A stretch of DNA of 20,000 nt. It comes from an uncultured virus (IMG/VR IMGVR_UViG_3300017593_001263). Its lineage: Duplodnaviria; Heunggongvirae; Uroviricota; Caudoviricetes. Every line of letters begins with the position of its first letter. Position 1 is the first letter of the stretch. Below, piece after piece: positions 4,120 to 20,000 of the stretch. Under the pieces are notes generated by a model that made no database searches, was not told the DNA's origin, and saw only the letters and a list, made by a program, of their open reading frames with translations. The position numbers and the translations under genes are program-made. The stretch lies in IMG/VR virus record IMGVR_UViG_3300017593_001263. One strand, written 5' to 3'.

Positions 4120-4273
4120 TGAGCACACCTCTTAGCTTTTCTATAATATTCTTTCTATCTTCTGGTTTTTCTGCCCAAAATATCTCTTCGATTATTCTTT
4201 CCAGCACTTGGAAGTCCTCATAAGCCATCTGTTCTTCCAATATCTCAACCATTTGAGACGGCAATATCCCCAT
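4112..4273 (-). CDS. Small hypothetical protein, 53 aa (MGILPSQMVEILEEQMAYEDFQVLERIIEEIFWAEKPEDRKNIIEKLRGVLNG)
   Basis: Not in the ORF track; GGATGGTG RBS; bridges the primase and the next gene with short overlaps. Confidence 0.65.
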   Translation of the reverse strand: MGILPSQMVEILEEQMAYEDFQVLERIIEEIFWAEKPEDRKNIIEKLRGVLNG

Positions 4274-5447
4274 TTTGAGCACCATCCTCTTTGATGAGGG
4301 AAAACACCTTCAAACTCCTCTCACCATAAAGGCTTGTATAGTTTCGCACATATAAATTATTGAACTTGCTTTCCAACAGCTTCAAAAACTGGTAGTGAGC
4401 CAATGAATACATCTTATCTTTGTAGATGAATCCTCTTACCGCACCAATATACCACTTCAGCTCGTGAAGCTTCAACAAGTTGAAACCGAACTTTTCAAGC
4501 TCATTTAAGTTTTTGGGGAAAATGCGCAATATCTTCATCAACCTATTTCTGTGCACGATGTCCAAGCAGATAGCATAAAAGCCATATCTACCCTCAAATA
4601 TGAAAAAGTCGGACAGCTGAAACCTTTTTATGGCGGCAAGTATTTTCTGCACGAATTCATCAAGCTGGGTAGTGCCATCACTAACGAATATGCAGAAGTG
4701 ATCCTTCATGCCAAGGATGTTGTTAGAAATAGCAACGGTGGGGGAAGACCCCCCAACTTCCCCCACCTCTGGCAGATGCTTTACGCTGGGGATTCTGGTC
4801 ATCTCCTTATCGGATCGAGGGGGCAATTTCTTTATGTCTTCCAAACTATTTAAGAGTTTGCACACAACACCGTCAGAAAGAGTAAGCGGGATTTTAACTA
4901 TTTGCCGTGTGTTGATTACGCAAGCGTCTATGTCCACCCCATAGTTTATGACGTCCATCACAAGCTCTTCGTTCTTCTTCAAATACCACACCTCTCTTTT
5001 CCATGCAGTCTGGTATGGGCATTTGAGGTCACGCTTTATAGCTATGTGAACTCCATTGCCAGAGTGGAGCATGTATATTATCTCATACTTGTGGTCTTCT
5101 AGGTATTCAAGCAAGAGTTTAGCATTCTTATAAACATCCTTATCTATGTCGAACACGAACCAATCTTGCTTGAGAAATATGCCGTCATGGTGGTGGAGAA
5201 CTCTTTTGCCAACACGAGATGGGTTCAAGAATCGGCTAACCATATAATAAGCTTTCTGCGGCAAGTACCTCAGCATTATTTTTTGAAGCTGCTCTGGAGT
5301 GCGGACATGGTCAACCTTAACTTTCTTGAATGTGTTGTCTTGGAGCAAGAGTCTTATCTGTCTGAATTTGAAGAAGTTTCTGTCTATCTCGAAGATTGGT
5401 GAAAAGTCCACTTGTTCATAGTATTCTTTAGGGTTCAACTCAATCAC
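4245..5447 (-). CDS. Archaeo-eukaryotic primase (PriS-like AEP) with an extra C-terminal domain, 400 aa
   Basis: FRQIR N-terminal motif, PQKAYY...P, motif I WFVFDID, motif II HSGNGVHI, motif III IDACVINTRQIVKIP. Confidence 0.85.
   Translation of the reverse strand: MIELNPKEYYEQVDFSPIFEIDRNFFKFRQIRLLLQDNTFKKVKVDHVRTPEQLQKIMLRYLPQKAYYMVSRFLNPSRVGKRVLHHHDGIFLKQDWFVFDIDKDVYKNAKLLLEYLEDHKYEIIYMLHSGNGVHIAIKRDLKCPYQTAWKREVWYLKKNEELVMDVINYGVDIDACVINTRQIVKIPLTLSDGVVCKLLNSLEDIKKLPPRSDKEMTRIPSVKHLPEVGEVGGSSPTVAISNNILGMKDHFCIFVSDGTTQLDEFVQKILAAIKRFQLSDFFIFEGRYGFYAICLDIVHRNRLMKILRIFPKNLNELEKFGFNLLKLHELKWYIGAVRGFIYKDKMYSLAHYQFLKLLESKFNNLYVRNYTSLYGERSLKVFSLIKEDGAQNGDIAVSNG
4737..4767. repeat. Perfect 11-bp GC-rich hairpin inside the primase gene
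   Basis: GGTGGGGGAAG (4737-4747), 9-nt loop, CTTCCCCCACC (4757-4767). Confidence 0.9.
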
Positions 5448-5450
5448 CAG

Positions 5451-5984
5451 CTACTCAACAACTATTATTATTTTCACCTTCCTCTTTGCTGGAATCTTTA
5501 TAACTTGTTCCGCTTGCTCTTTGACTGCTTTCACAGATTGTGATTCTGCATCTTTATGTTTAATTTTTCTGGTTTTAGGGTACAATGCATGCAAGTTGTA
5601 TTTCTTGAAGTATGGATATAAGCTCTTTGGAGAAACTCCGAGCTCCTCGGCGATTTTTTCCATAGCTTCTTTCTTCTCCAAACCTTCGTCTGCATACTTC
5701 TTTGCGAGTTCTATAACTTTTGCTGGGTCGATTTGAACTCTCTTCTTCTTTGAACTCTCTTTCTTTTCAACCTTCTTTTTAGGTTTAACGTCTCTGATTC
5801 TCCAACCGCAATGATACAATATTTTATGTATGTAGAAGGGACTTGTATCCAATTCGTATGCGATGTGATTAGCTATCTCGTTTCTCGATTTCCCTTCCTT
5901 TGCCATTTTTGTTGCTTCCGATATAATCCATTCTATCGTATCTTTATCCATCACTTTCGGTCTTTTTATCAACTCGCTTAACAA
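5451..5984 (-). CDS. Basic protein with two HTH-like repeats, 177 aa
   Basis: SRNEIANHIAYELDTSPFYIHKIL and KKEAMEKIAEELGVSPKSLYPYF joined by a Lys-rich linker; GGAGGTGA RBS before TTG. Confidence 0.75.
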   Translation of the reverse strand: MLSELIKRPKVMDKDTIEWIISEATKMAKEGKSRNEIANHIAYELDTSPFYIHKILYHCGWRIRDVKPKKKVEKKESSKKKRVQIDPAKVIELAKKYADEGLEKKEAMEKIAEELGVSPKSLYPYFKKYNLHALYPKTRKIKHKDAESQSVKAVKEQAEQVIKIPAKRKVKIIIVVE

Positions 5985-5985
5985 A

Positions 5986-6249
5986 CTACATCACCTCCTT
6001 AACTACATCTTCTTCCAATATGCCGTAATCCCTTTTCTGTCCGAATCTGTCCAATATGACTTTTTTTAGGTATATGCCACGCCAATGTGCTTTTCTTCTA
6101 TCTTGCGCAAGAGCGAGCACAAACAGTTTTCCTTCCTCATCTCTAACGAATTTGTAGTCGAATGTGTCATCTTCTTTTTTCACCTTTGAGAGTATTTCAT
6201 CAAGGGTGTTTACCCAATCCTTCTCTATTCTAACATAAACCCACATCAT
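5986..6249 (-). CDS. Hypothetical protein, 87 aa
   Basis: GGTGA RBS; ATGA overlap with the upstream gene. Confidence 0.75.
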   Translation of the reverse strand: MMWVYVRIEKDWVNTLDEILSKVKKEDDTFDYKFVRDEEGKLFVLALAQDRRKAHWRGIYLKKVILDRFGQKRDYGILEEDVVKEVM

Positions 6250-6692
6250 TTATTCACCTTGACGTCTTTACTTCCATTATATTTTGATACGTCTTCAGAT
6301 ACCTCAACTATAATCTTTTTAGAGCCCTCCTCCTCAACGTAAGTTCGGTAAACGAAGACGTCTGGGAAATCTCCACCAAAAGCCTTCTGTATGACCTCAA
6401 AAGGTATTGAGATGACTTGAGGATACCTTTTTCCAGCTTTGTTGATTTTCACCTTGAACAGCTTCCATTTATGCTCTTTGCTTGGCTTAATGCCATGTTT
6501 AAGAAGCAAGTTGTTGACATAGCCGTAAGAGTAACCAGTAGCCTCACATATCTTTCTGACGCTTCCGTACTTATCCCATAGTGCTTGAAGAACCTCTTTG
6601 GTCAGAAGTCCAGAGCACTCATGCTTGTTAATGTCAAAATACTCCTCAAGCGAGTTGAAAGTCTTCCAGCACTTCAGACATTTTATTTGCAT
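6246..6692 (-). CDS. Zn-finger + HTH + possible AbrB-like DNA-binding protein, 148 aa
   Basis: CLKC...HEC; GSVRKICEATGYSYGYVNNLL HTH; QVISIPFEVIQK is AbrB-like; leaderless start about 25 nt from TTTAAA. Confidence 0.75.
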   Translation of the reverse strand: MQIKCLKCWKTFNSLEEYFDINKHECSGLLTKEVLQALWDKYGSVRKICEATGYSYGYVNNLLLKHGIKPSKEHKWKLFKVKINKAGKRYPQVISIPFEVIQKAFGGDFPDVFVYRTYVEEEGSKKIIVEVSEDVSKYNGSKDVKVNK

Positions 6693-6775
6693 GTTAATAT
6701 GTTATAAAAAGATAAATTTAAATACTTTTTCTTGATGGGAAAGAAATAAATCTGTTCAGAGATAATATATCATAC
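6693..6775. promoter_or_regulatory. Divergent promoter region
   Basis: Minus strand GAAAAAGTATTTAAA (6731-6717); plus strand GAAAGAAATAAAT ahead of RBS-less ATG 6776. Confidence 0.6.
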
Positions 6776-7060
6776 ATGGAAGTGGAGTGGAATCCCAAAA
6801 CAGTTTTGAACTTCATAAAAACTTGCAGAAGTCACGGAGGAATCCCAGCATTTAGAACTAGGTATGCTGGTGCAAGACTGAAATTGGATCATGGATATAA
6901 AGTTATAGGAATATGCTTGGGTGGTGGTGACGAAGAACCAGTAGATTTCATAAATGTGCCAGAAGAGATTGTTGATGAGCTTGAAGAGAGGGTTGGCGAC
7001 TGGAGATATTTATTTGCAAGATATTCTATGGAACTTGGTAAACCACCTATAATCAGGTAA
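6776..7060 (+). CDS. Hypothetical protein, 94 aa
   Basis: Opens a plus-strand gene block; normal composition. Confidence 0.75.
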   Translation: MEVEWNPKTVLNFIKTCRSHGGIPAFRTRYAGARLKLDHGYKVIGICLGGGDEEPVDFINVPEEIVDELEERVGDWRYLFARYSMELGKPPIIR

Positions 7061-7065
7061 TCGAT

Positions 7066-7419
7066 ATGAGTGAAATAATAACACTATCTAAGAAGCTAAA
7101 AAAATTTGTTGATATTGTAGGAATCGAAATGCGTGATTTGTACAAGACGATAAGGTCGGTTTATGGTGGTAGCATACAGTATATAGTTTTTAAAGACACT
7201 TGCAATATTGGATGGTATCATTGCATCGATTTTAAGTATAGAGGTAATGAATATAGAATTGCTTTCGTTCTACCAAGTTTGAGGATATTTGTTTTCGATG
7301 GTAAGGACGTTATCTTCAAAAGTATGAAGTTACAGAAAGACGGACGATTAGCTCCAAGTAAGGCGAAAGAGGCGGTAAAACAAGTATTTCGTTTTCTTGA
7401 AGAAAAAGTGTTCATCTAA
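7066..7419 (+). CDS. Hypothetical protein, 117 aa
   Basis: AGGTAA RBS-like site; 5 nt after the upstream stop. Confidence 0.75.
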   Translation: MSEIITLSKKLKKFVDIVGIEMRDLYKTIRSVYGGSIQYIVFKDTCNIGWYHCIDFKYRGNEYRIAFVLPSLRIFVFDGKDVIFKSMKLQKDGRLAPSKAKEAVKQVFRFLEEKVFI

Positions 7420-7495
7420 AAAGTTAGAACCACTTTTAAATACTATTTTTGTAAATATAATATTAGCTAATATTAGAAATGAGAGGTGATGTGAG

Positions 7496-7792
7496 ATGGC
7501 AAAGAAAGTACAGTCTGAGCAGACCCCTGGGCGTGTTAGGCATCTCAACGGTATGGGTAGGTTCTTCATAAAGCCCTCTCTTGGAAGAGTGCTTATAAGA
7601 AAGTCTGGTGTGATTAGAAGGAGTGACAAAGTGAGGGCAATCAATAAGAAGGTTGCAGCCAACCCGCCTGCTGCAAGGGCAAAGGCTGCATGTCTGAAAG
7701 ACCACCCAGAGTTTGGAGAGGTCTGCCCGATTCACTACTTCAGGAAGTACCTCAGGAAGGAAATGGAGGCTGTGGTTGGAAAGGGAGCGTAA
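7496..7792 (+). CDS. Highly basic protein, 98 aa; candidate nucleoprotein/DNA-condensing protein
   Basis: About 23 K+R versus 7 D+E; own TTTAAATA promoter (about 7435-7442), GAGGTGA RBS, GC-richer codons, downstream hairpins. Confidence 0.8.
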   Translation: MAKKVQSEQTPGRVRHLNGMGRFFIKPSLGRVLIRKSGVIRRSDKVRAINKKVAANPPAARAKAACLKDHPEFGEVCPIHYFRKYLRKEMEAVVGKGA

Positions 7793-7793
7793 A

Positions 7794-7835
7794 CCTTGCT
7801 GTGCAAGGGGGGTTATACCCCCCATCACTTCTTCT
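7794..7835 (+). terminator. Putative terminator/3' stability structure
   Basis: CCTTGC-tgt-GCAAGG (7794-7808) overlapping GGGGGG-ttata-CCCCCC (7807-7823), then a pyrimidine-rich tract. Confidence 0.5.
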
Positions 7836-7857
7836 ATAATTTGTGGTGGTGATATTA

Positions 7858-8208
7858 GTGTTATTGAAAAAATTTTGCGAGCAAATTGGCGGCGAATACA
7901 AGGTAGAGGAGGATGGTTCTGAGTATTGCGATATGGGGACTCATCTGTCCGCTAAAATATATATTGGAGAGAGTGGTGGAGAAGCATACTTAAATGTAGG
8001 AGTTATAGCTCCTAATGTTGATTTAAAAATACATGCACCTAATATGGAGATTATAAAGATTGGTAGAAGGTATGAGAGAGGTGCACTATTACCACCAATA
8101 CTAAAAGTTGATGTTTCTGGTTCTGAATTTAATATTTCTTATTCAACAACTATTGAGGCTATTAAGGTTAGTTATGTTGGTGACAAGATACGGGTTACGA
8201 TAGATTAA
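7858..8208 (+). CDS. Hypothetical beta-rich protein, 116 aa
   Basis: GGTGA RBS before GTG 7858; alternating hydrophobic pattern. Confidence 0.7.
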   Translation: MLLKKFCEQIGGEYKVEEDGSEYCDMGTHLSAKIYIGESGGEAYLNVGVIAPNVDLKIHAPNMEIIKIGRRYERGALLPPILKVDVSGSEFNISYSTTIEAIKVSYVGDKIRVTID

Positions 8209-8236
8209 TATTATTTGATATACCTATATATCGAGT

Positions 8237-8638
8237 ATGGAGGAAGAAATTTGGGAATTGAGAATAGACGCTCTCGATGTAGCAATACTTGATTTGCTGT
8301 ATCATTCTAAAATAAAGATGACAACGACGGATATTGCTAAAACTTTGTTTTATTATGAGAATAAATACGACCTAATGCGTTCTGATAACTTCGTCAGAAA
8401 GAGGTTGAAGAAGCTTAAAAAGTATGGTTTGGTAGAGTGCATAAAGGAAAACAACAAGATGTATTACACAATTAATCACATCAACATAATTTTTGAAGAG
8501 GATGGTGGGGTTCTTTTCAGAGTTGGCGAAATAGTTGTTAAGATTTGGGAGCTTGAAACTTCGAGACCAAGATTCTCTGGCAATATGCAAAATATATATA
8601 TGTTCGAAGACAATAATGAAGTGAATATAGAGCAATAA
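8237..8638 (+). CDS. Winged-helix DNA-binding protein, 133 aa
   Basis: LDVAILDLL...MTTTDIAKTL...VRKRLKKLKKYGLVE...YYTI wHTH pattern. Confidence 0.8.
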   Translation: MEEEIWELRIDALDVAILDLLYHSKIKMTTTDIAKTLFYYENKYDLMRSDNFVRKRLKKLKKYGLVECIKENNKMYYTINHINIIFEEDGGVLFRVGEIVVKIWELETSRPRFSGNMQNIYMFEDNNEVNIEQ

Positions 8639-8646
8639 TGTTTGTC

Positions 8647-8699
8647 GCAACGGAGAGGAGAACCCACAACAACAATAAAAGGATTCTCCTCTCCGTTGC
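8647..8699. repeat. Perfect 16-bp inverted repeat (21-nt loop) between convergent genes
   Basis: GCAACGGAGAGGAGAA (8647-8662) / TTCTCCTCTCCGTTGC (8684-8699). Confidence 0.92.
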
Positions 8700-8713
8700 T
8701 TGATTAGTCCTTA

Positions 8714-8893
8714 TTCCGAGTCCGCTTATCCCACTTCTATTTTAAATCCATCTTTGAATAGATTTGTTGAAACGCTGTCCACTCGCTTGTGGTAGTTGTA
8801 TAAGCTGTTTTCGAACCACGTGTATGCTTCAACGAGTGCTTCGTTTTCATCTTTTGCTTCTACTTTTATTTCCTTCACCAAGCGGACTCGGAA
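8714..8893. repeat. Perfect 14-bp long-range inverted repeat bracketing a small ORF
   Basis: TTCCGAGTCCGCTT (8714-8727) / AAGCGGACTCGGAA (8880-8893), 152-bp spacer. Confidence 0.9.
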
Positions 8894-8908
8894 AGTTTTT
8901 TTGGTCAT
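8726..8908 (-). CDS. Small protein, 60 aa (MTKKTFRVRLVKEIKVEAKDENEAL...), DpnD/PcfM-like VEAxxExEA motif
   Basis: Start moved to ATG 8908 because the longer ORF-track start runs through the repeat array; motif recognised from memory. Confidence 0.65.
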   Translation of the reverse strand: MTKKTFRVRLVKEIKVEAKDENEALVEAYTWFENSLYNYHKRVDSVSTNLFKDGFKIEVG

Positions 8909-8924
8909 TATTATAGTATATTTT

Positions 8925-9006
8925 TGCAACAAATGAGACAATTGCGACAACTTCTTTTATGTATGTCGTTTTTTAATGCGACAATTTGTGCGACAACATG
9001 CGACAA
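8925..9006 (+). repeat. Iteron-like TGCGACAA direct-repeat array (candidate replication origin/operator)
   Basis: Exact copies at 8943, 8977, 8989 and 8999; one-mismatch copies at 8925 and 8934; an inverted exact copy at 8642-8649; AT-rich flanks. Confidence 0.8.
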
Positions 9007-9035
9007 CCAATTTAATATATATTTTCAAGTAAACA

Positions 9036-10175
9036 TTATTTTGAAATTACGCCTAACTTCCTTAATTTATTTAACCGTCTATAAAACGTTGACCTATGAA
9101 TACCTAATTCATTATGAATCCTATTTGCTCTTTCGTTGTTACTCATTTCTGGATGTTCATTAAATAACCTTACAATTTCCTTATCTATCTCATCCAACTC
9201 GATATCCAACTCAAACAATAGTTTCGCCCTATACTCCCAATCTTTCTTGAAGTTCAGATAAATGTCCTTCAGCAAGTTATAATCCCTTAAAGTTATGCAC
9301 ACTTTATTATCCTTCAGCCAATCCACAACCGCAAAATCGACTCCATCCCTCTTTGCCAAAATATACATCATTTCAAGAAGCTCTTTTCTCGTAAATTTAA
9401 GCTCATAACGAACACATCTTTGTTTTAGAGCTAACATGACTTCATCCGTCTCATCAAAATAATTCATTATGAATATCATTTTGCCTTCAAAATTGAATTC
9501 GTCCAAAATACCTTCTTGTTCTAATGTGTTGTGTGCTGTTTGCCATGATACTTTACCGTCTTTGTCCAAAGCTCCGAGAAGTATATTAACTGCATTATCG
9601 TCATTAAACAAATTAACAACATCATCGAAAATTATGATTCCATTTCTGTGGTTGTATAGCTGTTTGTATAGCATTTTTGCAGTAATCCTACCTCTTATAA
9701 CATGAGTTTTTATGTTCTTCTTTTCAAAATAATTAGTAATGTTGAATGTTTTACCATACCCAGAATTACCTATTATTATGCAACCTTTTACTTCATCGCT
9801 TTTAAGAAACGTATCGAGAACATCGTAAAGCTTTCGATAATACTTTTCAAGCTTCGGTTCGTGCTGTTTCAGTAATTCCTTTTTCTTCTCTTCAAGCTCC
9901 TTCTCGATTAACTCTCTTTCGTATTCAAGCTGTCGTTTGATGAACTCTCTTTCTTCATCTTCAATATCCTTTTTAGATTTATCAACATAACCATACTCTT
10001 TAAGAAACTTGACCATCTCTCTTTTCACTCCGTCTTTATCATTCCAATCCAAGCTGACCAAATCGAATTCTTGCCAATCTATGCCAAGCTCCTCACACTT
10101 TCTGATAAACCACCTAACCAATCTGCCGTCTATCTTATCGTTCTGTTTTTTAAGCTCTCTTATTATGTTGTCCAT
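9036..10175 (-). CDS. AAA+ ATPase with N-terminal coiled coil and C-terminal HTH (candidate initiator/helicase loader)
   Basis: Walker A GNSGYGKT, Walker B IIIFDD, sensor-1 FIMN, Arg finger ALKQRC, HTH RIHNELGIHRSTFYRRL; AAGGTG RBS before ATG 10175; TTTAAA at about 10211-10216. Confidence 0.85.
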   Translation of the reverse strand: MDNIIRELKKQNDKIDGRLVRWFIRKCEELGIDWQEFDLVSLDWNDKDGVKREMVKFLKEYGYVDKSKKDIEDEEREFIKRQLEYERELIEKELEEKKKELLKQHEPKLEKYYRKLYDVLDTFLKSDEVKGCIIIGNSGYGKTFNITNYFEKKNIKTHVIRGRITAKMLYKQLYNHRNGIIIFDDVVNLFNDDNAVNILLGALDKDGKVSWQTAHNTLEQEGILDEFNFEGKMIFIMNYFDETDEVMLALKQRCVRYELKFTRKELLEMMYILAKRDGVDFAVVDWLKDNKVCITLRDYNLLKDIYLNFKKDWEYRAKLLFELDIELDEIDKEIVRLFNEHPEMSNNERANRIHNELGIHRSTFYRRLNKLRKLGVISK

Positions 10176-10218
10176 TAACGACACCTTAATATCTTATACA
10201 TACATAAGTTTTTAAATA

Positions 10219-10803
10219 TTATGATTTAGTAACTTTCTCGATAAGAGCCATCTTTCTTACCATGTCCGCAAACTTATCCTTTTTCAAATACATGTAATCT
10301 TCAAGCTTCTTGTAATACTTCTTATGCAGTTCGTTAAGCTTCCTATCGGATATGAAAAACAATGTTCTGCTTTGAAGACCTATAATCCTTATCGTAAACA
10401 GTATGGTCAGTATCTTTGCCGTTTCTTTATCGAACATCAAGTTTGCCAAGTGGTTGAATATGTCTATTGACTCTTTGATTGTGACACTTATCTTTACATC
10501 AGCTCCATAATCACATCTCAAAAGCAAAACCAATTTATCATTCAAATTGAATTCAATGATAAGTGGGTAATAACACACTCCGTTAATCCACACCGCCTCT
10601 ATGAATATATCGACTGTTGTGTCTATAAACGTTTCAAGTGCTTTATCATCCCCTATTAGCTTGAATCTTACATTTTTTTCATTTGGAAACGGTATTCTCT
10701 CTCCATAATCTGCATTCCACATATATTCAGCTCCCCAATGGGAGTAATGGTAATACCACTCTCCATTCCTTCTTTTCTCTATTATGAAAGCCCTATTTCC
10801 CAT
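10219..10803 (-). CDS. Hypothetical protein with N-terminal MGxRA...HYSHWGA motif (DUF6735-like), 194 aa
   Basis: N-terminus MGNRAFIIEKRRNGEWYYHYSHWGA; GGTGTGA RBS; family name recalled, not searched. Confidence 0.7.
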   Translation of the reverse strand: MGNRAFIIEKRRNGEWYYHYSHWGAEYMWNADYGERIPFPNEKNVRFKLIGDDKALETFIDTTVDIFIEAVWINGVCYYPLIIEFNLNDKLVLLLRCDYGADVKISVTIKESIDIFNHLANLMFDKETAKILTILFTIRIIGLQSRTLFFISDRKLNELHKKYYKKLEDYMYLKKDKFADMVRKMALIEKVTKS

Positions 10804-10814
10804 AGTTCACACCA

Positions 10815-11177
10815 CTACAGATACTTCAATTTAAGCAACATAGCTAATTTCTCTCCATCTCCTTTTCGTTCCTTTAGTACTTCCATCAAAAGCACAATAT
10901 GGGTATCAAATTCCAGCTCGATTTTGTATTCTAATAAAAGTTTTGTCAGCTCTATTATCTTGTCGCTTGCGGAAATCAACCTTTTGGCTATTTCGGATTT
11001 GTTTTCTTCATCCACTATGTCGAAATAAACAACATTTGTGTTTGAGCCACACTCACTACACGAAACCTCCAATAAGTCATCATCGAAATCTATATCTCCA
11101 TCACTACGTAACCATACAGTTCGTGCTATGCTTTCAACAACCCATAAACTTCCACAGTTCAAGCATATATACGGCAT
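10815..11177 (-). CDS. Zn-ribbon paralogue 4 (ICLNCGSL...CSEC)
   Basis: Two CxxC pairs; colinear similarity to three nearby genes; GGTGA RBS. Confidence 0.85.
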   Translation of the reverse strand: MPYICLNCGSLWVVESIARTVWLRSDGDIDFDDDLLEVSCSECGSNTNVVYFDIVDEENKSEIAKRLISASDKIIELTKLLLEYKIELEFDTHIVLLMEVLKERKGDGEKLAMLLKLKYL

Positions 11178-11179
11178 GG

Positions 11180-11563
11180 CTAATCACCTTTTGAAAATAC
11201 CTTTAACAATACTGCCAGCTTATCATGTCCCATGTCTTTCAGCTTGACAATAAGTTTTTCCATACCCTCATCACTTATCTTGATTTTTCCATCCTTCACC
11301 AAATTTGCGAACACTACAATTCTATCATCTCCTTTAGCGCTCAATAATGCTTTAGCAACTTCTCTTTTATCTTCACATACAATCTCGAAATCAATTAGAT
11401 TTACTTCTTCATAACACTCATAACACTCAATTCCGCTAATTTCATCCAGCTCCAAATCGTCTTTGTATACTTCTCCATCTAACTCCAACTCCACAATAGT
11501 GTATGCAACGTAATCAACCCTATATTCTAAACTTCCACAGTTCAAACAAATTCGTGGTCTCAT
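11180..11563 (-). CDS. Zn-ribbon paralogue 3 (ICLNCGSL...CYEC)
   Basis: Two CxxC pairs; LIDFEIV...EVAKALL...LVKDGKIKI shared with 12387-12776; GAGGTG RBS. Confidence 0.85.
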   Translation of the reverse strand: MRPRICLNCGSLEYRVDYVAYTIVELELDGEVYKDDLELDEISGIECYECYEEVNLIDFEIVCEDKREVAKALLSAKGDDRIVVFANLVKDGKIKISDEGMEKLIVKLKDMGHDKLAVLLKVFSKGD

Positions 11564-11566
11564 ACT

Positions 11567-11743
11567 TCAACACCTCTCAAATATATACATTCTTCCCACT
11601 TTCCTGAATTTCAGCTTTCCCTCACTTGCCATCTTGAATAGATACGTCCTTGCAGTTAGAGGACAAATCCTAAATGCTTTTGCTACGTCACCAGCACATA
11701 CGTATTTCATCTTCTTTACGAGTTCCATAATATCTCTCTCCAT
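11567..11743 (-). CDS. Minimal winged-helix protein, 58 aa (MERDIMELVKKMKYVCAGDVAKAFRICPLTARTYLFKMASEGKLKFRKVGRMYIFERC)
   Basis: Not in the ORF track; GGTGA RBS, TGATG overlap; DeoR/FaeA-like wHTH pattern. Confidence 0.8.
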   Translation of the reverse strand: MERDIMELVKKMKYVCAGDVAKAFRICPLTARTYLFKMASEGKLKFRKVGRMYIFERC

Positions 11744-12306
11744 CAGCTATCACCTTTTGTGGATTTTGCCAAAATTATCATTTTTTCGAGTTCTTTCTTT
11801 GTTACGTCAACCCATTTAAACAGTTCAATTAGTTCTAAAATAGATTCAAAAACACCATTAACGAATAACACTATGTAATTGTCTACATAAGAATATGTTA
11901 GTTCTAATTTCGAAATTTTATCTCCAAGTATGCAATATATTTTGTTGAACATTTTTGTTCTCTCAAGGAATGAATCTACCAAATCAGAACCATTAATATT
12001 TTTTATGTGGTCTTCATCTACCAATCTTATCTTTAAGCGTGTATTTATTTGTGTGTTTTCACCAATTAATTTATTCAGAATTTCATAAACATCCATTATT
12101 TCATTCTTTAGATGTGAAAAGTCCTCGTATTTTAGGTCATAGGTTTTATAGCACACATACCCATTTTTACAGTCAATAATTATCAATAAGTCACCGTTAA
12201 ACCTTAACATAGCTCTATCAACACACATCAAACTATGTTTGCTTATACAATAATCTATCAGTTGTTTCATCTCCGTAATGTTCACATCTGTTATCTCTAT
12301 TTCCAT
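11743..12306 (-). CDS. Hypothetical protein, 187 aa
   Basis: GAGGTG RBS; long ORF within the operon. Confidence 0.8.
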   Translation of the reverse strand: MEIEITDVNITEMKQLIDYCISKHSLMCVDRAMLRFNGDLLIIIDCKNGYVCYKTYDLKYEDFSHLKNEIMDVYEILNKLIGENTQINTRLKIRLVDEDHIKNINGSDLVDSFLERTKMFNKIYCILGDKISKLELTYSYVDNYIVLFVNGVFESILELIELFKWVDVTKKELEKMIILAKSTKGDS

Positions 12307-12386
12307 AAGCTACACCTCACAATATTAATCTGCGTTCCATTTTACTATATAGCACGATACCGTCTGCCCTTGAATAACATTTTTCT

Positions 12387-12776
12387 TCAATTATCACCAT
12401 TTGCGTTCACCTTCAGCAATAGTGCCAATTTTCCATGTCCCATATCGTTAAGCTTTTCGATTAACATTTCAAGCTCCTTTTTACTTCTTATTCTGATTTT
12501 TCCGTCCTTAACCAATTGTGCAAACTTAATGATTCTTTCATTTTCATTACAATCGAGTAATGCTTTTGCGACTTCTTCTTTACATTCTTCAACCATTTCA
12601 AAATCTATTAGGTATTCATCTTCATCGCACTCATAACAGTAAACATATTTGACATTTCCATATTCCGTGCCATCAACAACAACATCTCCATTATGCTGAA
12701 ACATCACGTAATCATAAACTTCCGATTCAACAACATAATCCAAACTTCCACATCTCAAACATATTTTTGGTTGCAT
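12387..12776 (-). CDS. Zn-ribbon paralogue 2 (ICLRCGSL...CYEC)
   Basis: Two CxxC pairs; family similarity; GGTGA RBS. Confidence 0.85.
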   Translation of the reverse strand: MQPKICLRCGSLDYVVESEVYDYVMFQHNGDVVVDGTEYGNVKYVYCYECDEDEYLIDFEMVEECKEEVAKALLDCNENERIIKFAQLVKDGKIRIRSKKELEMLIEKLNDMGHGKLALLLKVNANGDN

Positions 12777-13165
12777 GTCACGTCACCTTCATCAGTTACT
12801 TTCAAGAGTAACGATAACTTCTCATATCCGTATTTTCTCAATATGTGATACAGACATTCCCTAACATATTTGTCAATACGGATTTTTTTCTCGATAACAA
12901 ATTTTGCAAACAGTTTTACTCTTTCCTTTCCATCAACCGAATACAGTTTATCAACCACTTCTTTTGGGTTATCTGCTATTATCTTGAAATCAACCAAGTA
13001 ATCCGCATTATCGCAATCGGGACAATACATTTCTTCAAATTCACCAACATCTCCTTCAGTAACAATAGCTTCTCCATCATCATTCAACGAAATTTCATCC
13101 CAAGCACTATAGGTAACTATATACGACAAACTTCCACACTTCAAACATATTTTTGTTTCAACCAT
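12755..13165 (-). CDS. Zn-ribbon paralogue 1 (ICLKCGSL...CPDC)
   Basis: Two CxxC pairs; family similarity; GGTGTGA RBS. Confidence 0.85.
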   Translation of the reverse strand: MVETKICLKCGSLSYIVTYSAWDEISLNDDGEAIVTEGDVGEFEEMYCPDCDNADYLVDFKIIADNPKEVVDKLYSVDGKERVKLFAKFVIEKKIRIDKYVRECLYHILRKYGYEKLSLLLKVTDEGDVTCNQKYV

Positions 13166-13171
13166 ACCACA

Positions 13172-13252
13172 TCACACCTTTTTCAAGCTCCATGTTTCGA
13201 TTCTTATTATTCTTCCATTTGCAACTTCATGTATTACTTCTTTTATCACCAT
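13172..13252 (-). CDS. Short peptide, 26 aa (MVIKEVIHEVANGRIIRIETWSLKKV)
   Basis: AGGTGTG RBS; fills the gap exactly; may be a gene remnant. Confidence 0.45.
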   Translation of the reverse strand: MVIKEVIHEVANGRIIRIETWSLKKV

Positions 13253-13262
13253 CAGCACACAC

Positions 13263-13634
13263 CTAATCACGAGCTTTTTCTATCAACATCCTTTTCCCAA
13301 TTTCATTAAATTTCTCCTTTAGTTTTTCCTTATCATCTATGATTTCTATTAGCTCCTTGAATATCTTTCGTTTATCTTGATATTTTCTCACTAAATGATA
13401 GATTATATTTCCTTCAAAATCATCTACCTCGAATTCAAACGACACTACCCATCTACCGATTAGTATGTTTGACGGTTCGTAATACTTGAACAAATATGTT
13501 GAAACGAATTGTTTGCACTCTATTGAATTACAGCTATATCCGTCTTGTCTATCCTTCTCGATTTTGTAGATAAACATTCTCATGTTTGAATAATTTTGAT
13601 ATGCGGTTGCTTGTAGTGATAACTTCATTTTCAT
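13263..13634 (-). CDS. Hypothetical protein, 123 aa
   Basis: GAGGTGA RBS; operonic. Confidence 0.8.
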   Translation of the reverse strand: MKMKLSLQATAYQNYSNMRMFIYKIEKDRQDGYSCNSIECKQFVSTYLFKYYEPSNILIGRWVVSFEFEVDDFEGNIIYHLVRKYQDKRKIFKELIEIIDDKEKLKEKFNEIGKRMLIEKARD

Positions 13635-13635
13635 A

Positions 13636-13938
13636 TCACGTCACCTCGTATATGTCTGGCTCATGGTAATCATACTTCCATGATTCATCAGCAATTATTA
13701 GTGAATAATCAATCACTTCAACATCATCAAGATGTTCTTTCAGTTTTTCAATTAGCCACTCCTCACAATCATCCAAATCATCAAAAACCTCGTAAAATTC
13801 TTGTTGTATGTTGTAGCAAACATCTGCGATAGGGTTTATTCTATGTGCTGATTTTATCAATATGTGTATTGTGTAGTCATCTGGAAACTTGAATTCAATC
13901 AAATACACCTTTCTCTTTAACTCATTACTGTAAACCAT
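13636..13938 (-). CDS. Acidic hypothetical protein, 100 aa
   Basis: GGGTGA RBS; D/E-rich C-terminal half. Confidence 0.8.
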   Translation of the reverse strand: MVYSNELKRKVYLIEFKFPDDYTIHILIKSAHRINPIADVCYNIQQEFYEVFDDLDDCEEWLIEKLKEHLDDVEVIDYSLIIADESWKYDYHEPDIYEVT

Positions 13939-14478
13939 CTAAATCACCCTCTTCAACAATATCATTTTTTCGGCTTCATTTCTGTTCGTGAACAGCTTTA
14001 GTTTGATTATCGATAAATCACAATCCATACCATCAGCTCTAATACCAAACCATTCATGCATACCTTCTTTATTTGCGACTATGGTTTCATGGATACCCCA
14101 TGCATCGAAAATTCTGCATAAGTATGCATACCCGTTATTTATCTCATATCTCTTTACCATTTTCACACATAGTGCTATTTGTTTAATATCATCGTTCATA
14201 ATCTCTCTAAAGACCTCATCAAAATCTCTAATCTCTCCATCTTTAACCCATAGTATTCTGCTCTTTGGAGTTATCTGAATTCTCATCATCCACTTATCAA
14301 AATCCTTTTCATTATGAATTACTTTTTCACATAATGTTAAGTGTGACACTCTGCCTAAATCTCCTTCAAAATACGATTGAGATATCCATGATACTACAAA
14401 ATGTTCAATTTTTCCTTCTTCATAATACTTTTTCATAGTGTCTTTAGCAAACTTAACAAAATCTTTTATTTCAGCCAC
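13939..14478 (-). CDS. Hypothetical protein, 179 aa
   Basis: AGGTGA RBS before GTG; overlaps the end of the VWA gene. Confidence 0.8.
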   Translation of the reverse strand: MAEIKDFVKFAKDTMKKYYEEGKIEHFVVSWISQSYFEGDLGRVSHLTLCEKVIHNEKDFDKWMMRIQITPKSRILWVKDGEIRDFDEVFREIMNDDIKQIALCVKMVKRYEINNGYAYLCRIFDAWGIHETIVANKEGMHEWFGIRADGMDCDLSIIKLKLFTNRNEAEKMILLKRVI

Positions 14479-15782
14479 ACAACATCACCTAAATGTTTTA
14501 TATTCTCATCACTTCCGTTTTTAGTCAATACCCACAGCACTTTTGCGGGTATGTTGATGTGTTGTGGTGCTTTCGTGTGTCCATCCGTGAAACAAACAAT
14601 TAATCGTGTATTTGGTATATTGTTCTCTATATATTCAAAGATGGGAATGTGAGATGTGCCACCACCACCTTTACATTTAGAAATCAATTCTTCTATGTCA
14701 GTATGTGCGTTAAAATCTACTACTTCATGGATAGTGCAATCTGCAAATATCACTTTAGCGTTCACGTTCTCTATGCTTCTTATTATTCCTTGAAGTTCAC
14801 TAAAGAATTCTTTTAAATCTTCATTATCTATTGAGCCAGATGTGTCTATGCTTATCACTAAATAAACATCTTCTTTCAACAATCGAGGTAGATATACACC
14901 CATCGCATAAGATTTTTTTGATGGTTGTGAATACGTGTATCGAGATGGCAAATTGCTCATTACAAACTTATAAAGAATCTGCTTCCAGCTCAATTTAGGT
15001 TCTAAAAGTTCATCAATCATTCTTAACAATTCAGCAGGAATGTTCCCTCTAATTTTAGATTTTGAGTGTTCTAAAGCAACAGATATAAGCTCTTTAACTC
15101 TATTTTCAAACTCTTTTCTCTCATGTTCGTTCATGTCGTTTAAATCATCGTGTTCATCAAACAGTTTTTTCTTAATCTCTTCTATTATCTTTTTCTTTAT
15201 GTCACTTTTACTGTCATCGTTTTGATTTTCGTTTTTATCAGATTGAGAGTCACCGTCACTATTATTGTTATCTTCATTATCGTTATTTTGTGAATCATGC
15301 GTTACTGATATTGTTAATACTGCTATTTCATCTATTTGTTGCATGAGTTCATCATAAATCATTTCAAAAGATTTTTGTGATATGTTCTCTATTCTTATTT
15401 CTTTATCGAAAATCTGTATCGTTATGGAATCGTTGCACGGTATTAATCCATTTTGCGGTAACTTATAGTTGCTCTTAACTATTATGTTGTTTATGATGAT
15501 GTCTTGAGCTATGTTGCATAGCTCTTTATTTCGATTACCTATTCTTCTTATGTGTTCTAAAGCTATGTGTAGAAGTTCGTGTAACAACACTCCTTTTACT
15601 TCATCTTTATCTAAATTCTCTATGAAGTGTTTGTTATACAACAGCTCAAAATCTTTAGTAACTCCTACCGTGCTTATCATGTCCGTTTCCTTAATCTTTA
15701 GATATAGTGATAAGTAACCGAAAAACGGATGTTCAAACATCAATTGTGTCCGTGCCCACTTCAATTTATCTTTAGCGTCCAT
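14466..15782 (-). CDS. HExxH putative metallopeptidase + VWA domain protein (DUF2201-like), 438 aa
   Basis: HPFFG, VLLHELLHIALEH, NIAQDIIIN, acidic/Asn-rich linker, MIDAS IDTSGS, GGGGTS, FTDG; GGTGA RBS. Confidence 0.9.
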   Translation of the reverse strand: MDAKDKLKWARTQLMFEHPFFGYLSLYLKIKETDMISTVGVTKDFELLYNKHFIENLDKDEVKGVLLHELLHIALEHIRRIGNRNKELCNIAQDIIINNIIVKSNYKLPQNGLIPCNDSITIQIFDKEIRIENISQKSFEMIYDELMQQIDEIAVLTISVTHDSQNNDNEDNNNSDGDSQSDKNENQNDDSKSDIKKKIIEEIKKKLFDEHDDLNDMNEHERKEFENRVKELISVALEHSKSKIRGNIPAELLRMIDELLEPKLSWKQILYKFVMSNLPSRYTYSQPSKKSYAMGVYLPRLLKEDVYLVISIDTSGSIDNEDLKEFFSELQGIIRSIENVNAKVIFADCTIHEVVDFNAHTDIEELISKCKGGGGTSHIPIFEYIENNIPNTRLIVCFTDGHTKAPQHINIPAKVLWVLTKNGSDENIKHLGDVVWLK

Positions 15783-15794
15783 TATCTTTCACCT

Positions 15795-16946
15795 TTACAA
15801 CAAATACTTCTTATACTTCTCAAACATTTCATCTGCAAACTTTTCGTTCAAAAACACATGCTCTAATTCTTCATGAGCGTGTTTTCCTATCAATTTGAAC
15901 GTGAAAGCAACGAACTCGGGTTCTATATATTGACACATCATGAGAGCTTTCTTAACTAAATCGAGCTTCTTCTTATTATCAGCGTTCTTAATTCTGTAAA
16001 CTAATTCAGTTAGAATAGAATAAATAAGCTCCTTTTCAGTTATTTCAGCGTTTTCTTTATCTATCTTTTCAGCTACTTTTCGAATCTCTTTAATTTTTTC
16101 GGGTTTTTCTATGTATTCATTTATGTTTATCTTATTGTGTAGTTTAAGATGTGCATAGAATCTTAAAGCAGTAGCTTCACCGACTGCATGTGATACTAAT
16201 TTTTTCACTTTGTTTATGTCTTCCACACCGCTTATCAATTTACTTGCATACTCCCAGCTCCGGGGAGTCGGAAAAGCTTTATCACTCATTTTAGAATCAA
16301 ATTTAAACAGAAACTCATTATTGGATGATATGAATGATACAATTCTTTTATCTATGTTGTGATTAACAGCCCATTCAATCCATTTATCTACTGAAATATC
16401 TAATTCACAATGAATAAATCGATTTTTGAGCGGTGCGGACATCTCAAATATGTTTGCTTTATCTTCTATACGATTACCAGCACTTATTACTAATACATTA
16501 TCTGAAAGTGGTTTTTCACCAACCACTCTATCGAGTATTATTTGATATGCAGAGGATTGGATTGATGGATGAGCCAGATTTAATTCATCAAAAAATAGTA
16601 TTCCGTGTGCTTTCTCATTAGTGAGAATGTCTAAAGCATGAGGTATTTTCCAAACAACCGTGCCGTCTGTCGGAACGGGAATACCCTTCAAATCTGAAGG
16701 TTCAATTTGTGATAATCTGAAATCCACGAGAATAAAGTATTTATCTATGTTGTTTTCAATTTCATTTTTATCTCTTATTTTGTTGTATTCAACATAAGTT
16801 TTATTGAGCTTTTTAGCTATGCGTTTAGCAGTTTCTCTTATAGTTTCACTCTTTCCGATACCCATAGCTCCCCACACGAACAAAGATAGCTTTTTCTCAT
16901 AACACAATTCAATCAGTTCTGAAAGTTCATCGTGTGTCACGTTCAT
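15795..16946 (-). CDS. MoxR-like AAA+ ATPase, 383 aa
   Basis: Walker A GAMGIGKS, DLKGIP, Walker B ILFFDELN, AGN sensor-1, PLKNRF Arg finger, FPTPRSWE sensor-2; adjacent VWA partner. Confidence 0.92.
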   Translation of the reverse strand: MNVTHDELSELIELCYEKKLSLFVWGAMGIGKSETIRETAKRIAKKLNKTYVEYNKIRDKNEIENNIDKYFILVDFRLSQIEPSDLKGIPVPTDGTVVWKIPHALDILTNEKAHGILFFDELNLAHPSIQSSAYQIILDRVVGEKPLSDNVLVISAGNRIEDKANIFEMSAPLKNRFIHCELDISVDKWIEWAVNHNIDKRIVSFISSNNEFLFKFDSKMSDKAFPTPRSWEYASKLISGVEDINKVKKLVSHAVGEATALRFYAHLKLHNKININEYIEKPEKIKEIRKVAEKIDKENAEITEKELIYSILTELVYRIKNADNKKKLDLVKKALMMCQYIEPEFVAFTFKLIGKHAHEELEHVFLNEKFADEMFEKYKKYLL

Positions 16947-16994
16947 GTGTTACCACCTTTCAGTTAATTATCTTTATCATATATTATTAAACAA

Positions 16995-17012
16995 TAATTT
17001 TAAATACTTATG
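16995..17012 (-). promoter_or_regulatory. BRE-TATA promoter for the MoxR-VWA operon
   Basis: TAAGTATTTAAA on the minus strand in the 80-bp intergenic gap, matching the promoters at about 6720 and 875. Confidence 0.6.
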
Positions 17013-17026
17013 TATCAATCGATATA

Positions 17027-17848
17027 TCAACATGCTTTCACTTTCATCAATAGCAACTTCTTCAATATAGTGTCTTTATTGTAGTAATTCAGCTTTTCGA
17101 TAACATCAGCTATCTTATTTATGTCTTCTACATCTTCAATAGTTTCGACAACATTCAGCTTTTCACGTTTAACAGCAAATTTCGAGATATACCTCTTCAT
17201 TTTATAATACAATTCATCTTTATAGTATATTTTATCGTCTAAAAAGAACACGAAATAAAATCTGTCATAGTATTGTTTTTCAACTCTTATCATTATAGCG
17301 TTCTTGAATATAGCATAATCACTTTCGAGAAGTTTATTAATAGTGTCATGATATTTTAACAATTTAGAAACTCTTTTCACTCTCTTTCTAATTTCTTTAA
17401 TAGCAGTCATTTCATCTTCATTTAATATCAGTTCACAGATGTTTGCTATACTGATACAGTTCATTCTATCAATAGTTTCAAGTTCATCATCGTTAAGTTT
17501 AGATAAAACATTCACTATTTTGCTTATCTCATCTTCATGTTCACATTTAATACTCAATCTCATTTTTGTATTGTTTATCGTAACTTCAACAATACGATAT
17601 ATGTTATCTCTTGAAACGTAATAATCTCTTAATTCACACTCATCTAAAGCTATGCGTATCATATCTGAATCAGAAACAGAAGTTATCAAATAATTCAGTA
17701 TTTTCTTATTCTTAATATCTACTCTTAAAATTTCAGTTCCGTAATGATACAAATATAAAACATCATCTACATAATTCGTTTCGTAACTTCTCAATTTGTA
17801 TCCTTTCTTTTTTTCTAATGTTTTCTTAATCAGTTCGTCACGTCGCAT
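17027..17848 (-). CDS. Hypothetical protein, 273 aa (no Pro, no Trp, 2 Gly)
   Basis: Long ORF in AT-rich DNA; GGTGTG RBS; LYLYHYGTEIL motif. Confidence 0.8.
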   Translation of the reverse strand: MRRDELIKKTLEKKKGYKLRSYETNYVDDVLYLYHYGTEILRVDIKNKKILNYLITSVSDSDMIRIALDECELRDYYVSRDNIYRIVEVTINNTKMRLSIKCEHEDEISKIVNVLSKLNDDELETIDRMNCISIANICELILNEDEMTAIKEIRKRVKRVSKLLKYHDTINKLLESDYAIFKNAIMIRVEKQYYDRFYFVFFLDDKIYYKDELYYKMKRYISKFAVKREKLNVVETIEDVEDINKIADVIEKLNYYNKDTILKKLLLMKVKAC

Positions 17849-18507
17849 GTCAACACACCATCACATCTTAATAGTTCAATAACTTCTTCAACAACGTCAT
17901 CAAGATTAGAAACATAAGCTTCACATCCACGCTCATCAAAATGTTCGAGAATGTATACGAGATTTTTAATAGCGTCTGTAATTCTTCTTTCAAGAACATG
18001 TTCTAAACTATAATACTCATTTTGCATAACTCCATACTTTTCATAATACTCCATTTTTGCTTCATGTTCATCGAGCCACTTTTTATTCTCTTCTATTAGT
18101 TCTTCTCTCAATTTCTTTCTATCAGCTTTAACTTCTATAACTATGCTATCGAAACACACTTCTATAAACTCATAATCAAATGATAAATCAACACTATTTA
18201 TAGCTTCTTTTATTTTTTCAGTCATGTAATCATAAGCTTTATCTTGATATTCTGTCGTTAAGACATTAGCGTATGCCATCTTTATATATTCAATTAATTC
18301 AATATCATCTATATTTATATTCACTCTTTCTTTAACTTTTTTTAGTATGTATTCTATTGTGTCGTTATCTAAATAGACATCGTCACTATGAAATATCAAA
18401 TCTTCATTTATTATTCTTAACGTAGCTTTAACATTATCTATTTCATGAAGTTCTATTGTGAGTTCAATTGTTCTTTTAAACTTAATACGTGTGTCTTTTG
18501 TTAACAT
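17830..18507 (-). CDS. Acidic hypothetical protein, 225 aa
   Basis: Long ORF; GAGTGA RBS-like site. Confidence 0.8.
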   Translation of the reverse strand: MLTKDTRIKFKRTIELTIELHEIDNVKATLRIINEDLIFHSDDVYLDNDTIEYILKKVKERVNINIDDIELIEYIKMAYANVLTTEYQDKAYDYMTEKIKEAINSVDLSFDYEFIEVCFDSIVIEVKADRKKLREELIEENKKWLDEHEAKMEYYEKYGVMQNEYYSLEHVLERRITDAIKNLVYILEHFDERGCEAYVSNLDDVVEEVIELLRCDGVLTCDVTN

Positions 18508-18513
18508 ATACTA

Positions 18514-18978
18514 TCACTCTCTTATCTTTTCTAAAAGTTCCATCCTTTCGGTTAAATAATTTTGAAACTCATACAAATAATTTGGAAACTCATAAAGTTC
18601 ATCATCACAATCGAAAATCTGCATAAGCTTTTCATAAGCTCTTTTACATTCAGTATATGCTTTATTAATTTTCTTTTCATCATAAGTATCAAATAATTGT
18701 GAAAATGCTTCTATATCTTCATATTCTGCATAAAATAGAGCGTCACTTACGTGACTTTCAAGAGCATAAAGTAAATCATAATTATCGAGTTCATATTTTC
18801 CTTGACGATAATTATAAACTGAATCATAAAAATAGAAATAGTGTCTATGTTTATCGCACTTAATCATGATTTTGTGTTTCATGCGATAAGCTTTCATTTC
18901 TTCATCATAATAGTGTTCTGATTTAACTACTTTTACTATAATTGTTTTGTTTTTGAAATGTAGTGTGATTTGTGTCAT
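18514..18978 (-). CDS. Hypothetical protein, 154 aa
   Basis: ATGA overlap; GGCGA RBS-like site. Confidence 0.8.
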   Translation of the reverse strand: MTQITLHFKNKTIIVKVVKSEHYYDEEMKAYRMKHKIMIKCDKHRHYFYFYDSVYNYRQGKYELDNYDLLYALESHVSDALFYAEYEDIEAFSQLFDTYDEKKINKAYTECKRAYEKLMQIFDCDDELYEFPNYLYEFQNYLTERMELLEKIRE

Positions 18979-19691
18979 GCTATCGCCTTCTCTATTATTA
19001 TTTTTTTAGAAACGTCTTTCACAAAATCAACATCGTTTATAATTATAGTGTTCGTTGCGTTATCGAAATCAACACAATAGATTTTGTTGTTTTCTGTATC
19101 GAGATAAATAGAATAGCGTCGTGCGTCAAAATACTTAATTAGTTCTTTAGAATTAACTATATTGTCTTTAAGTTTTAGCTCTAAATCTTTATCTCTATAT
19201 ATACGTATTATCGTCACATCTTTATTAAGTTTATTGCACATCTTCTTAATAATCTTTCTGTATTCTGTAATGTCTTCAGCGTTCTTAATTAGTTTGTTGT
19301 TAAAATATCTATCGTTATATTTTGTTTTTACAACATTTATTTCTTTTTTCATGAGTTCTTTAAGCTCTTCAAAACTCATTTTTTCGAGAAGTTTCTTAAC
19401 TATGTTTTTGATTTCACTTAAATTTTGTTTCTTATATGTGTATCTGTTTGATTGATACAAATAAAAAACAAGTGCGTTGTCAAGCTTAACTACATCATAG
19501 TTTAATACAACTTCATAATTTTCATCGAGTTCTTTGTTTGCGATGTTTGTGAGAGCTTTAAGTGTATAGAAGAAATCTAAAACTATGTCGAGTCCTCGAT
19601 TTCTTAAAGTGTATCGATAATAATACATGTTGTAATCAATATATTTTGTGAATCCGAGCTCGATTAATGTTTTGTTTGTTATTTTTTGCAT
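18975..19691 (-). CDS. Hypothetical protein, 238 aa (no Pro, no Trp, 2 Gly)
   Basis: GAGGTGA RBS; long ORF. Confidence 0.8.
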   Translation of the reverse strand: MQKITNKTLIELGFTKYIDYNMYYYRYTLRNRGLDIVLDFFYTLKALTNIANKELDENYEVVLNYDVVKLDNALVFYLYQSNRYTYKKQNLSEIKNIVKKLLEKMSFEELKELMKKEINVVKTKYNDRYFNNKLIKNAEDITEYRKIIKKMCNKLNKDVTIIRIYRDKDLELKLKDNIVNSKELIKYFDARRYSIYLDTENNKIYCVDFDNATNTIIINDVDFVKDVSKKIIIEKAIA

Positions 19692-19700
19692 TTTATCACC

Positions 19701-19799
19701 TCATATTGAAATTTCAAACTCAAACATTATTTTGAGTATATCTTCAATTTCTTCATTACTTAAAGCCATTTCGTGTAAAGCTTTTATGAAATCAGACAT
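19701..19799 (-). CDS. Short acidic peptide, 32 aa (MSDFIKALHEMALSNEEIEDILKIMFEFEISI)
   Basis: Not in the ORF track; GGGTGA RBS; fills the gap. Confidence 0.55.
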   Translation of the reverse strand: MSDFIKALHEMALSNEEIEDILKIMFEFEISI

Positions 19800-19812
19800 T
19801 TTATCACCCTTT

Positions 19813-19983
19813 TTAATTGTTTTCTTGAGCATTAAGTTTAAATTCATCAAAAGTTATAAAATATGAAATTAAAGTTTTGATTTCATCTTCAGTTAAATTT
19901 TTTGCAGTTTGATACTCAAAATAATCTAATTCTAAATTTTGCATGATTTTTTCAATTAAATTTCGTATTTTCTTTAACATCAT
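19813..19983 (-). CDS. Small hypothetical protein, 56 aa (MMLKKIRNLIEKIMQNLELDYFEYQ...)
   Basis: Not in the ORF track; AAGGTG RBS. Confidence 0.6.
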   Translation of the reverse strand: MMLKKIRNLIEKIMQNLELDYFEYQTAKNLTEDEIKTLISYFITFDEFKLNAQENN

Positions 19984-20000
19984 ATTGACACCTTATTTAT

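Follow-up and report, generated by a model that had tools for sequence, protein, structure and literature searches.

The right-hand end of a 20,000-nucleotide stretch of viral DNA (the window) raises the question of what could have removed nearly every CC and GG dinucleotide from 3 kb of genes. The window comes from the uncultured virus IMGVR_UViG_3300017593_001263 (Caudoviricetes), and the depleted core, termed the desert here, comprises its last 3020 bp, from position 16981 to 20000. An exact recount of the + strand (A926 C498 G310 T1286) gives 20 CC and 2 GG, the latter at 18550 and 18584, in agreement with an original prediction made from the sequence alone. Base shuffles (n = 2000) give 82.1 ± 7.4 CC (minimum 58) and 32.0 ± 5.0 GG (minimum 17). 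The relative abundance rho is 0.24 for CC and 0.06 for GG, while CG (1.29), GC (1.13), TC (1.39) and GA (0.94) are plentiful, as was first noted. The longest runs free of CC and GG measure 608 bp (18986-19594) and 547 bp (17192-17739).

The loss also exceeds what the encoded proteins require. In a synonymous permutation test on the coding strand of five open reading frames (ORFs; 951 codons), with the protein and the codon pool held constant, codon junctions contain 0 CC against 8.0 ± 2.5 and 4 GG against 24.9 ± 3.8, values reached in none of 1000 permutations. CC and GG are under-represented after control for codon and amino-acid use, and the synonymous choices are correspondingly skewed: GCC is used for 0 of 34 Ala codons, TCC for 0 of 33 Ser codons and ACC for 1 of 47 Thr codons. 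The 22 remaining sites lie, as had been proposed, mostly where they are obligatory (19 of 22): eight in Gly codons, one each in a Pro and a Trp codon, four at the junction of a Met codon with a following G, and five in ribosome-binding site (RBS) positions. The three free survivors are two AGG and one ACC. Every CC context is reduced, with nine CCA, nine CCT, three CCG and one CCC left. The stretch of ORF154 with both + strand GG also contains a near-perfect 20-bp tandem duplication (18554-18594).

Because the coding strand loses both CC and GG while CG and GC stay, the motif would seem to be read on double-stranded DNA. This bears directly on selection at the RNA level, in which a highly expressed early mRNA would be adapted for weak structure, for a lack of internal Shine-Dalgarno sequences or for escape from RNase. 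Leading-region codon adaptation has been reported for plasmids (10.1101/2025.04.03.647016), but Shine-Dalgarno avoidance would leave CC in place, and an RNA-level explanation is scarcely credible here.

The cost to the proteins is considerable. The four long desert proteins, 890 residues in total, contain 8 Gly, 1 Pro and 1 Trp, exactly as originally counted. Compared with genes at 9-14.4 kb, Gly falls from 4.4% to 0.9% (p 2e-7), Pro from 0.9% to 0.1% and Trp from 1.3% to 0.1%, whereas the desert values for Ala (3.6%, against 3.5%) and Arg (4.8%, against 4.7%) hold steady. GC content is lower in the desert (25-29% per 500 bp, vs 29-37% at 9-17 kb), but low GC is no explanation, because it would reduce Gly, Pro, Trp, Ala and Arg alike. 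Together with the shuffles and the permutations, the steadiness of Ala and Arg upholds the earlier claim that the depletion goes beyond base composition and amino-acid usage. The same residues count against a local CC-directed mutational process (a deaminase or end-specific damage, with essential sites kept by purifying selection), which the original prediction had named as its alternative. Such a process would also leave the obligatory survivors and would fit the lower GC. However, no excess of product dinucleotides is present: with CC/GG set aside, TC/GA is 1.18 in both the desert and the mid zone, CT/AG is 0.97 vs 0.93, and CG is up (0.97 vs 0.78). Directed mutation is therefore a decidedly improbable cause.

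The claim that the encoded proteins were reshaped stands for ORF273, the desert gene next to the AAA gene, and would presumably extend to the other three long proteins. ORF273 contains 0.7% Gly, Pro and Trp combined, vs a median of 7.6% across 27 homologues, and both of its Gly residues (G16 and G37) occupy family-conserved positions. Because its predicted fold is confident (predicted local distance difference test score 87) and the conserved Gly residues are kept, ORF273 is taken to be a working gene. One of the 27 homologues, P0016, is about as low (0.8%); it is also poor in Ala and Arg (4.0%) and known at the protein level only, and was not counted as a second desert case. In the neighboring AAA gene, 24 of 27 Gly, Pro and Trp residues are common to at least half of six relatives, and one is private (relatives 1-15).

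The desert is not an isolated patch. Along the window, rho(CC+GG) per 2 kb runs, from left to right, 0.95, 0.83, 0.96, 1.12, 0.92, 0.87, 0.78, 0.67, 0.54 and 0.24, which bears out both the richness of the left half (0.83-1.12 across the left 10 kb) and the non-uniformity of the depletion (1.12 to 0.24). A single changepoint falls at 16872-16992, and a three-segment fit, in which P(repeat | C or G) is 0.179, 0.108 and 0.027, places edges at 14669 and 17007; the edge of the desert is stepped. The desert ORFs have junction ratios of 0.00-0.21, against 0.57 for the AAA gene (z -3.0) and 0.41 for the vWA gene (z -3.8). Across 22 genes lying further to the left the range is 0.65-1.16, with slightly low values in three (z -2.0 to -2.4).

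A broader tier, poor in palindromic words, encloses both. GATC, CTAG, GTAC, CTNAG and GCNGC occur 5-14 times each in positions 1-8000, and together number 46 sites there vs 1 in 8-20 kb (the window being 20 of ~72 kb). Nowhere in the window do GGCC, CGCG or CASTG occur, and CCGG and GGNCC are each found once. These avoided four- and five-letter words (GATC, CTAG and others) resemble restriction targets. The desert is the innermost of these nested tiers, and avoidance tightens toward the right end. It is improbable, however, that the desert is the sum of avoidance of many CC/GG-containing restriction or phosphorothioate motifs. About ten palindromic four- to five-letter words are avoided, several of them containing CC or GG, but all CC contexts drop, not palindromes or CCA alone, and at 8-14 kb the words have disappeared although CC/GG there is close to normal (quasi-independence 0.94). 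Restriction words are therefore not the whole cause; the suggestion that restriction targets were purged holds insofar as the desert lies inside the restriction-site-poor tier, and fails as a sufficient account.

The depletion is absent from relatives of this virus, as a comparison of 19 loci with an ORF273 homologue demonstrates (a single palindromic contig accounts for two of them, and several are almost duplicates). At that gene rho is 0.89-1.75, also where GC is below 30%, and codon-level ratios in seven ORF273, six AAA and four vWA orthologues are 0.75-1.49. In a baseline of 104 viral loci (1.36 Mb; 2169 overlapping 3-kb intervals), including six cultured hyperthermophilic viruses, rho averages 1.01 (s.d. 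0.13) with a minimum of 0.71, so that 0 of 2169 intervals fall below 0.71, vs 0.19 in the desert. Among 80 viral loci with a related AAA gene, only AAA/vWA and one other gene are held in common and no ORF273 homologue was found; these loci serve as baseline and are not close kin. Eleven of the 19 loci carry the AAA gene a short way downstream of the ORF273 homologue, the other eight being contigs of 1.1-2.3 kb that are too short. Because undepleted relatives keep the ORF273-AAA-vWA order across the boundary, sequence comparison places the origin of the purge within this lineage and at its present position. The desert is real, strongly selected and lineage-specific. Partial second copies of the N-terminal part of the AAA gene occur upstream of the module in two of the related contigs (L001, 833-1393; L004, 83-346).

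These comparisons make it very improbable that the block came from a CC/GG-poor donor or is a chimera of the assembly. The step near 17 kb is rather sharp, and the comparison loci contain no relatives of ORF225, ORF154 or ORF238, as would be expected of such a block. However, a horizontally acquired island is contradicted by the lack of a synteny break at the boundary, which falls inside the conserved gene order, and by homologues that do not share the composition; the conserved AAA and vWA genes are themselves partly purged, and a CC/GG-poor donor would itself require explaining. The boundary is crossed by individual contigs in three runs from one study (one possibly the source of the window), and a contig of the ~90%-identical X5 strain from a second study (~9-14% divergent) bridges 15820-19109. 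An assembly chimera is largely refuted.

The DNA of the window was found in hydrothermal vent metagenomes, in which its contig measures up to 71,981 bp. An Alba chromatin protein encoded by the virus (1525-1794, +; Pfam E 7.5e-13), GGTGA-type RBSs, a MoxR-like AAA/vWA pair and predicted folds like those of tailed phages suggest a head-tail virus of an archaeon; the window contains no capsid or terminase gene. The Alba protein is equally near structures from Methanocaldococcus and Archaeoglobus.

The right end of the window probably lies at or near a genome terminus. All genes annotated between 8.7 and 20 kb read leftward from that end, forming an 11-kb one-directional array, and the restriction-site-poor tier points the same way, toward the start of the array. 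Contigs in all four runs end before 20000 (X1 at 19861, X3 at 19536 and X4 at 19629); X4 depth drops from 73 to 3-13 beyond 17215, in pieces, and X5 thins too. All 17 non-palindromic relative contigs start no more than 3.4 kb upstream of the ORF273 homologue, and 11 of them are less than 5 kb long. In a distant 69-kb head-tail virus (98% complete, with only AAA/vWA shared), AAA/vWA lies 1.5-4.2 kb from one end of the record and the terminase at the other. One related contig (L007) is a perfect 21-kb palindrome whose center, at 4944, lies upstream of both the array's first gene (by ~60 bp) and the ORF273 homologue (by 5 kb); it may be either a hairpin end or an amplification artefact.

The best explanation, on which our judgement is evenly balanced, is that a host DNA defence reading CC:GG wore the step away, the likeliest reader being a CRISPR system with a CCN protospacer-adjacent motif (PAM) and spacer uptake at the entering end. 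On this view, a head-tail virus of ~72 kb would enter its vent archaeon starting at or near the right end of the window, where a host defence with double-stranded CC:GG as its target would act most strongly. Spacer uptake by a CRISPR-Cas system with a 5'-CCN PAM would require CCN and prefer free DNA ends; repeated uptake, PAM escape and selection against new CC:GG would then remove the step wherever protein or RBS permits. Such a ratchet of uptake and escape would weaken away from the end and could generate a gradient with no need for full invisibility. A PAM ending in N fits because all CC contexts drop. Spacer uptake in Pyrococcus furiosus is described as having a CCN consensus and a preference for free DNA ends, and type II-A uptake as favoring injected phage termini (PMC5737086); an NGG PAM is described for Thermococcales and a vent alkane-degrading archaeon (PMC13676074), and GG is given as the PAM for types I-A and I-B (PMC4246573).

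Several findings weigh against this explanation. No full-length match to the virus was found among the spacers of 201 genomes of one small-genome archaeal phylum. The best spacer (s2732 of genome G002, 34/39 to 19798-19835) is T-rich, lies over an RBS and mismatches the start codon, and was taken as a chance match and not as a real protospacer. Interference in P. furiosus is described as accepting NGA and NAG PAMs too (PMC4666368), and TC/GA and CT/AG are not depleted in the desert. The CC depletion in the literature is small, 8.27% vs 8.74% (PMC12174588). None of the six cultured viruses of hyperthermophilic archaea, Sulfolobus viruses facing a CC PAM among them, has a desert (minimum 3-kb rho 0.75-1.07). 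The desert proteins have no anti-defence match in Pfam, PHROG, NCBIfam, PADLOC or PDB fold searches, and the coverage fade at the right end could be mimicked by AT bias of the libraries. The stealth leading region of the original prediction thus survives in part: the purge goes beyond GC and amino-acid use and is uneven along the window, relatives are unpurged and the position is probably near a genome end, but 22 CC:GG steps remain and NGA/NAG are undepleted. G002, a 0.8-Mb archaeal genome with cas1, carries a CRISPR array in which a 30-bp repeat occurs 56 times (contig L029, 26-3732). A second genome, G001, into which two virus-related contigs were binned, was not accepted as the host, since binning is no proof of one.

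A reader of CC:GG other than CRISPR is a possible though somewhat doubtful cause. The virus may modify or coat its own DNA at CC/GG, or a host defence may bind CC/GG, and in either case the first-expressed unit must be step-free. The main boundary is indeed a transcription-unit border, and the depletion is stronger than published PAM depletion. Self-modification is harder to reconcile with the 11 intergenic regions, which are unpurged (57 observed vs 56.4 expected), or with the avoidance of GGCC (0 observed, 10.8 expected), CCGG (0, 8.1) and GGNCC (1, 10.8) even in the CC-rich left 8 kb, where those steps seem unprotected; no modifying enzyme was found among the 37 window proteins (20 of ~72 kb). 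We would offer only tentatively, as an unlikely generalization, that a novel double-stranded CC:GG reader (a defence, or a viral modification or coat) acts in both archaea and bacteria and makes viruses write their first-acting genes step-free at the expense of Gly, Pro and Trp, with this virus as a graded, genome-end example.

Three known systems resemble parts of the preferred CRISPR explanation. PAM depletion in phage genomes (PMC4246573, Kupczok and Bollback 2014; PMC12174588, Ortega-Sanz et al. 2025, with a type I-F CC PAM) shares the loss of CC/GG beyond codon and amino-acid use and the lower GC. That published effect is genome-wide and slight, with GG left out of most analyses in the 2014 paper (PMC4246573), whereas this virus has an approximately five-fold loss over 3 kb that is graded and affects three amino acids, the host PAM being presumed. 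Target-free first-injected regions, namely T5/BF23 first-step-transfer DNA (PMC10644984) and the leading region of Murciavirus with respect to type I restriction-modification (PMC12455610), share a target-free end with small, variable, inward-read genes whose function is not known. Those involve restriction sites of 6-8 bp in bacterial phages with proven staged entry (PMC10644984, PMC12455610); here the avoided step has two letters and the virus is archaeal, with a probable terminus and a putative entry order. Finally, P. furiosus offers a CCN reader that favors DNA ends (PMC5737086) and interference PAMs (PMC4666368), although in the available text of these papers the mechanism is described on the host side with no viral sequence response reported, and interference is broader than CCN (PMC5737086, PMC4666368). 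By analogy, the desert would act like both target-free first-injected regions and PAM depletion, but it is not established as a member of either class. Among the papers listed by searches of the literature (Creative-Commons PMC and bioRxiv), none describes a local desert in a two-letter step that alters viral amino-acid use, and the available main text of a Thermococcales virus preprint makes no mention of PAMs (PMC12934983).

If CRISPR is the reader, the desert would be a footprint of PAM selection far stronger and more local than published ones, immunity would shape the amino-acid alphabet of a virus, and spacer maps would make it possible to test the connection of spacer uptake at free ends with the evolution of viral sequences. 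In uncultured archaeal viruses, such deserts would mark first-entering ends, candidate anti-defence genes and the host PAM. With a different reader, the pattern would indicate an undescribed DNA-reading system.

Table 1. Tiers, genes and intergenic features at the right end of the window
Feature	Coordinates	Strand	Description
Core CC/GG desert	16981..20000	both	Defined by counts, shuffles and changepoints
Intermediate tier	14669..17007	.	Synonymous CC/GG loss in AAA and vWA genes
Restriction-site-poor tier	8001..20000	.	Observed/expected: GATC 0/40.3, CTAG 0/24.0, GTAC 1/24.0, CTNAG 0/30.5, GCNGC 0/7.1
DUF2201 metallopeptidase/vWA protein	14466..15782	-	Family match
MoxR-like AAA ATPase	15795..16946	-	phrog_1297, E 5e-77
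AT-rich intergenic stretch upstream of AAA gene	16947..17026	-	RBS 16953-16957; putative promoter; main boundary
ORF273 (P0002)	17027..17848	-	2 Gly, 0 Pro, 0 Trp; N-terminal domain weakly like Kyano Gp96 and staphylococcal TreP (small phage proteins)
ORF225 (P0003)	17830..18507	-	Acidic, net charge -24, isoelectric point (pI) 4.5; no family match
ORF154 (P0001)	18514..18978	-	Sole Pro of the four long proteins and the two + strand GG; fold prediction resembles tailed-phage proteins, template modelling (TM) score 0.64
ORF238 (P0004)	18975..19691	-	2 Gly, 0 Pro, 0 Trp; no family match
32-codon ORF	19701..19799	-	GGTGA-type RBS
56-codon ORF	19813..19983	-	Free of CC/GG and of Gly, Pro and Trp; site resembling an RBS at 19991

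Among the desert genes (Table 1), ORF273 has no match in cultured phages or the PDB, the sole match to ORF154 among seven candidates is ORF154 itself, and a search of metagenome contigs with ORF238 returned no relative. Viral contigs searched with AAA, ORF273 and a DNA pattern likewise yielded neither the contig of the window nor a near relative of it. Scans for repeats and promoters gave nothing above chance.

Further left in the array, four tandem paralogous genes (10815-13165, -) encode proteins of 120-136 residues with CxxC motifs that are 34-53% identical; the X5 strain is missing some of them, with joints at 11166-11550 and 12740-13127. A P-loop protein (9036-10184, -; phrog_1250, E 8e-29) has a fused C-terminal helix-turn-helix. 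Outside the array, a 400-residue protein with primase-like motifs (4245-5447, -) has a faint PriS match (E 0.047; E 0.003 for its one relative), and a basic protein of 98 residues (7496-7792, +; pI 10.9) is encoded by a gene with 50% GC, the highest among the genes measured. GC-rich intergenic hairpins occur at 7793-7842 and at 8639-8725, the latter between convergent genes and near the left edge of the restriction-site-poor tier.

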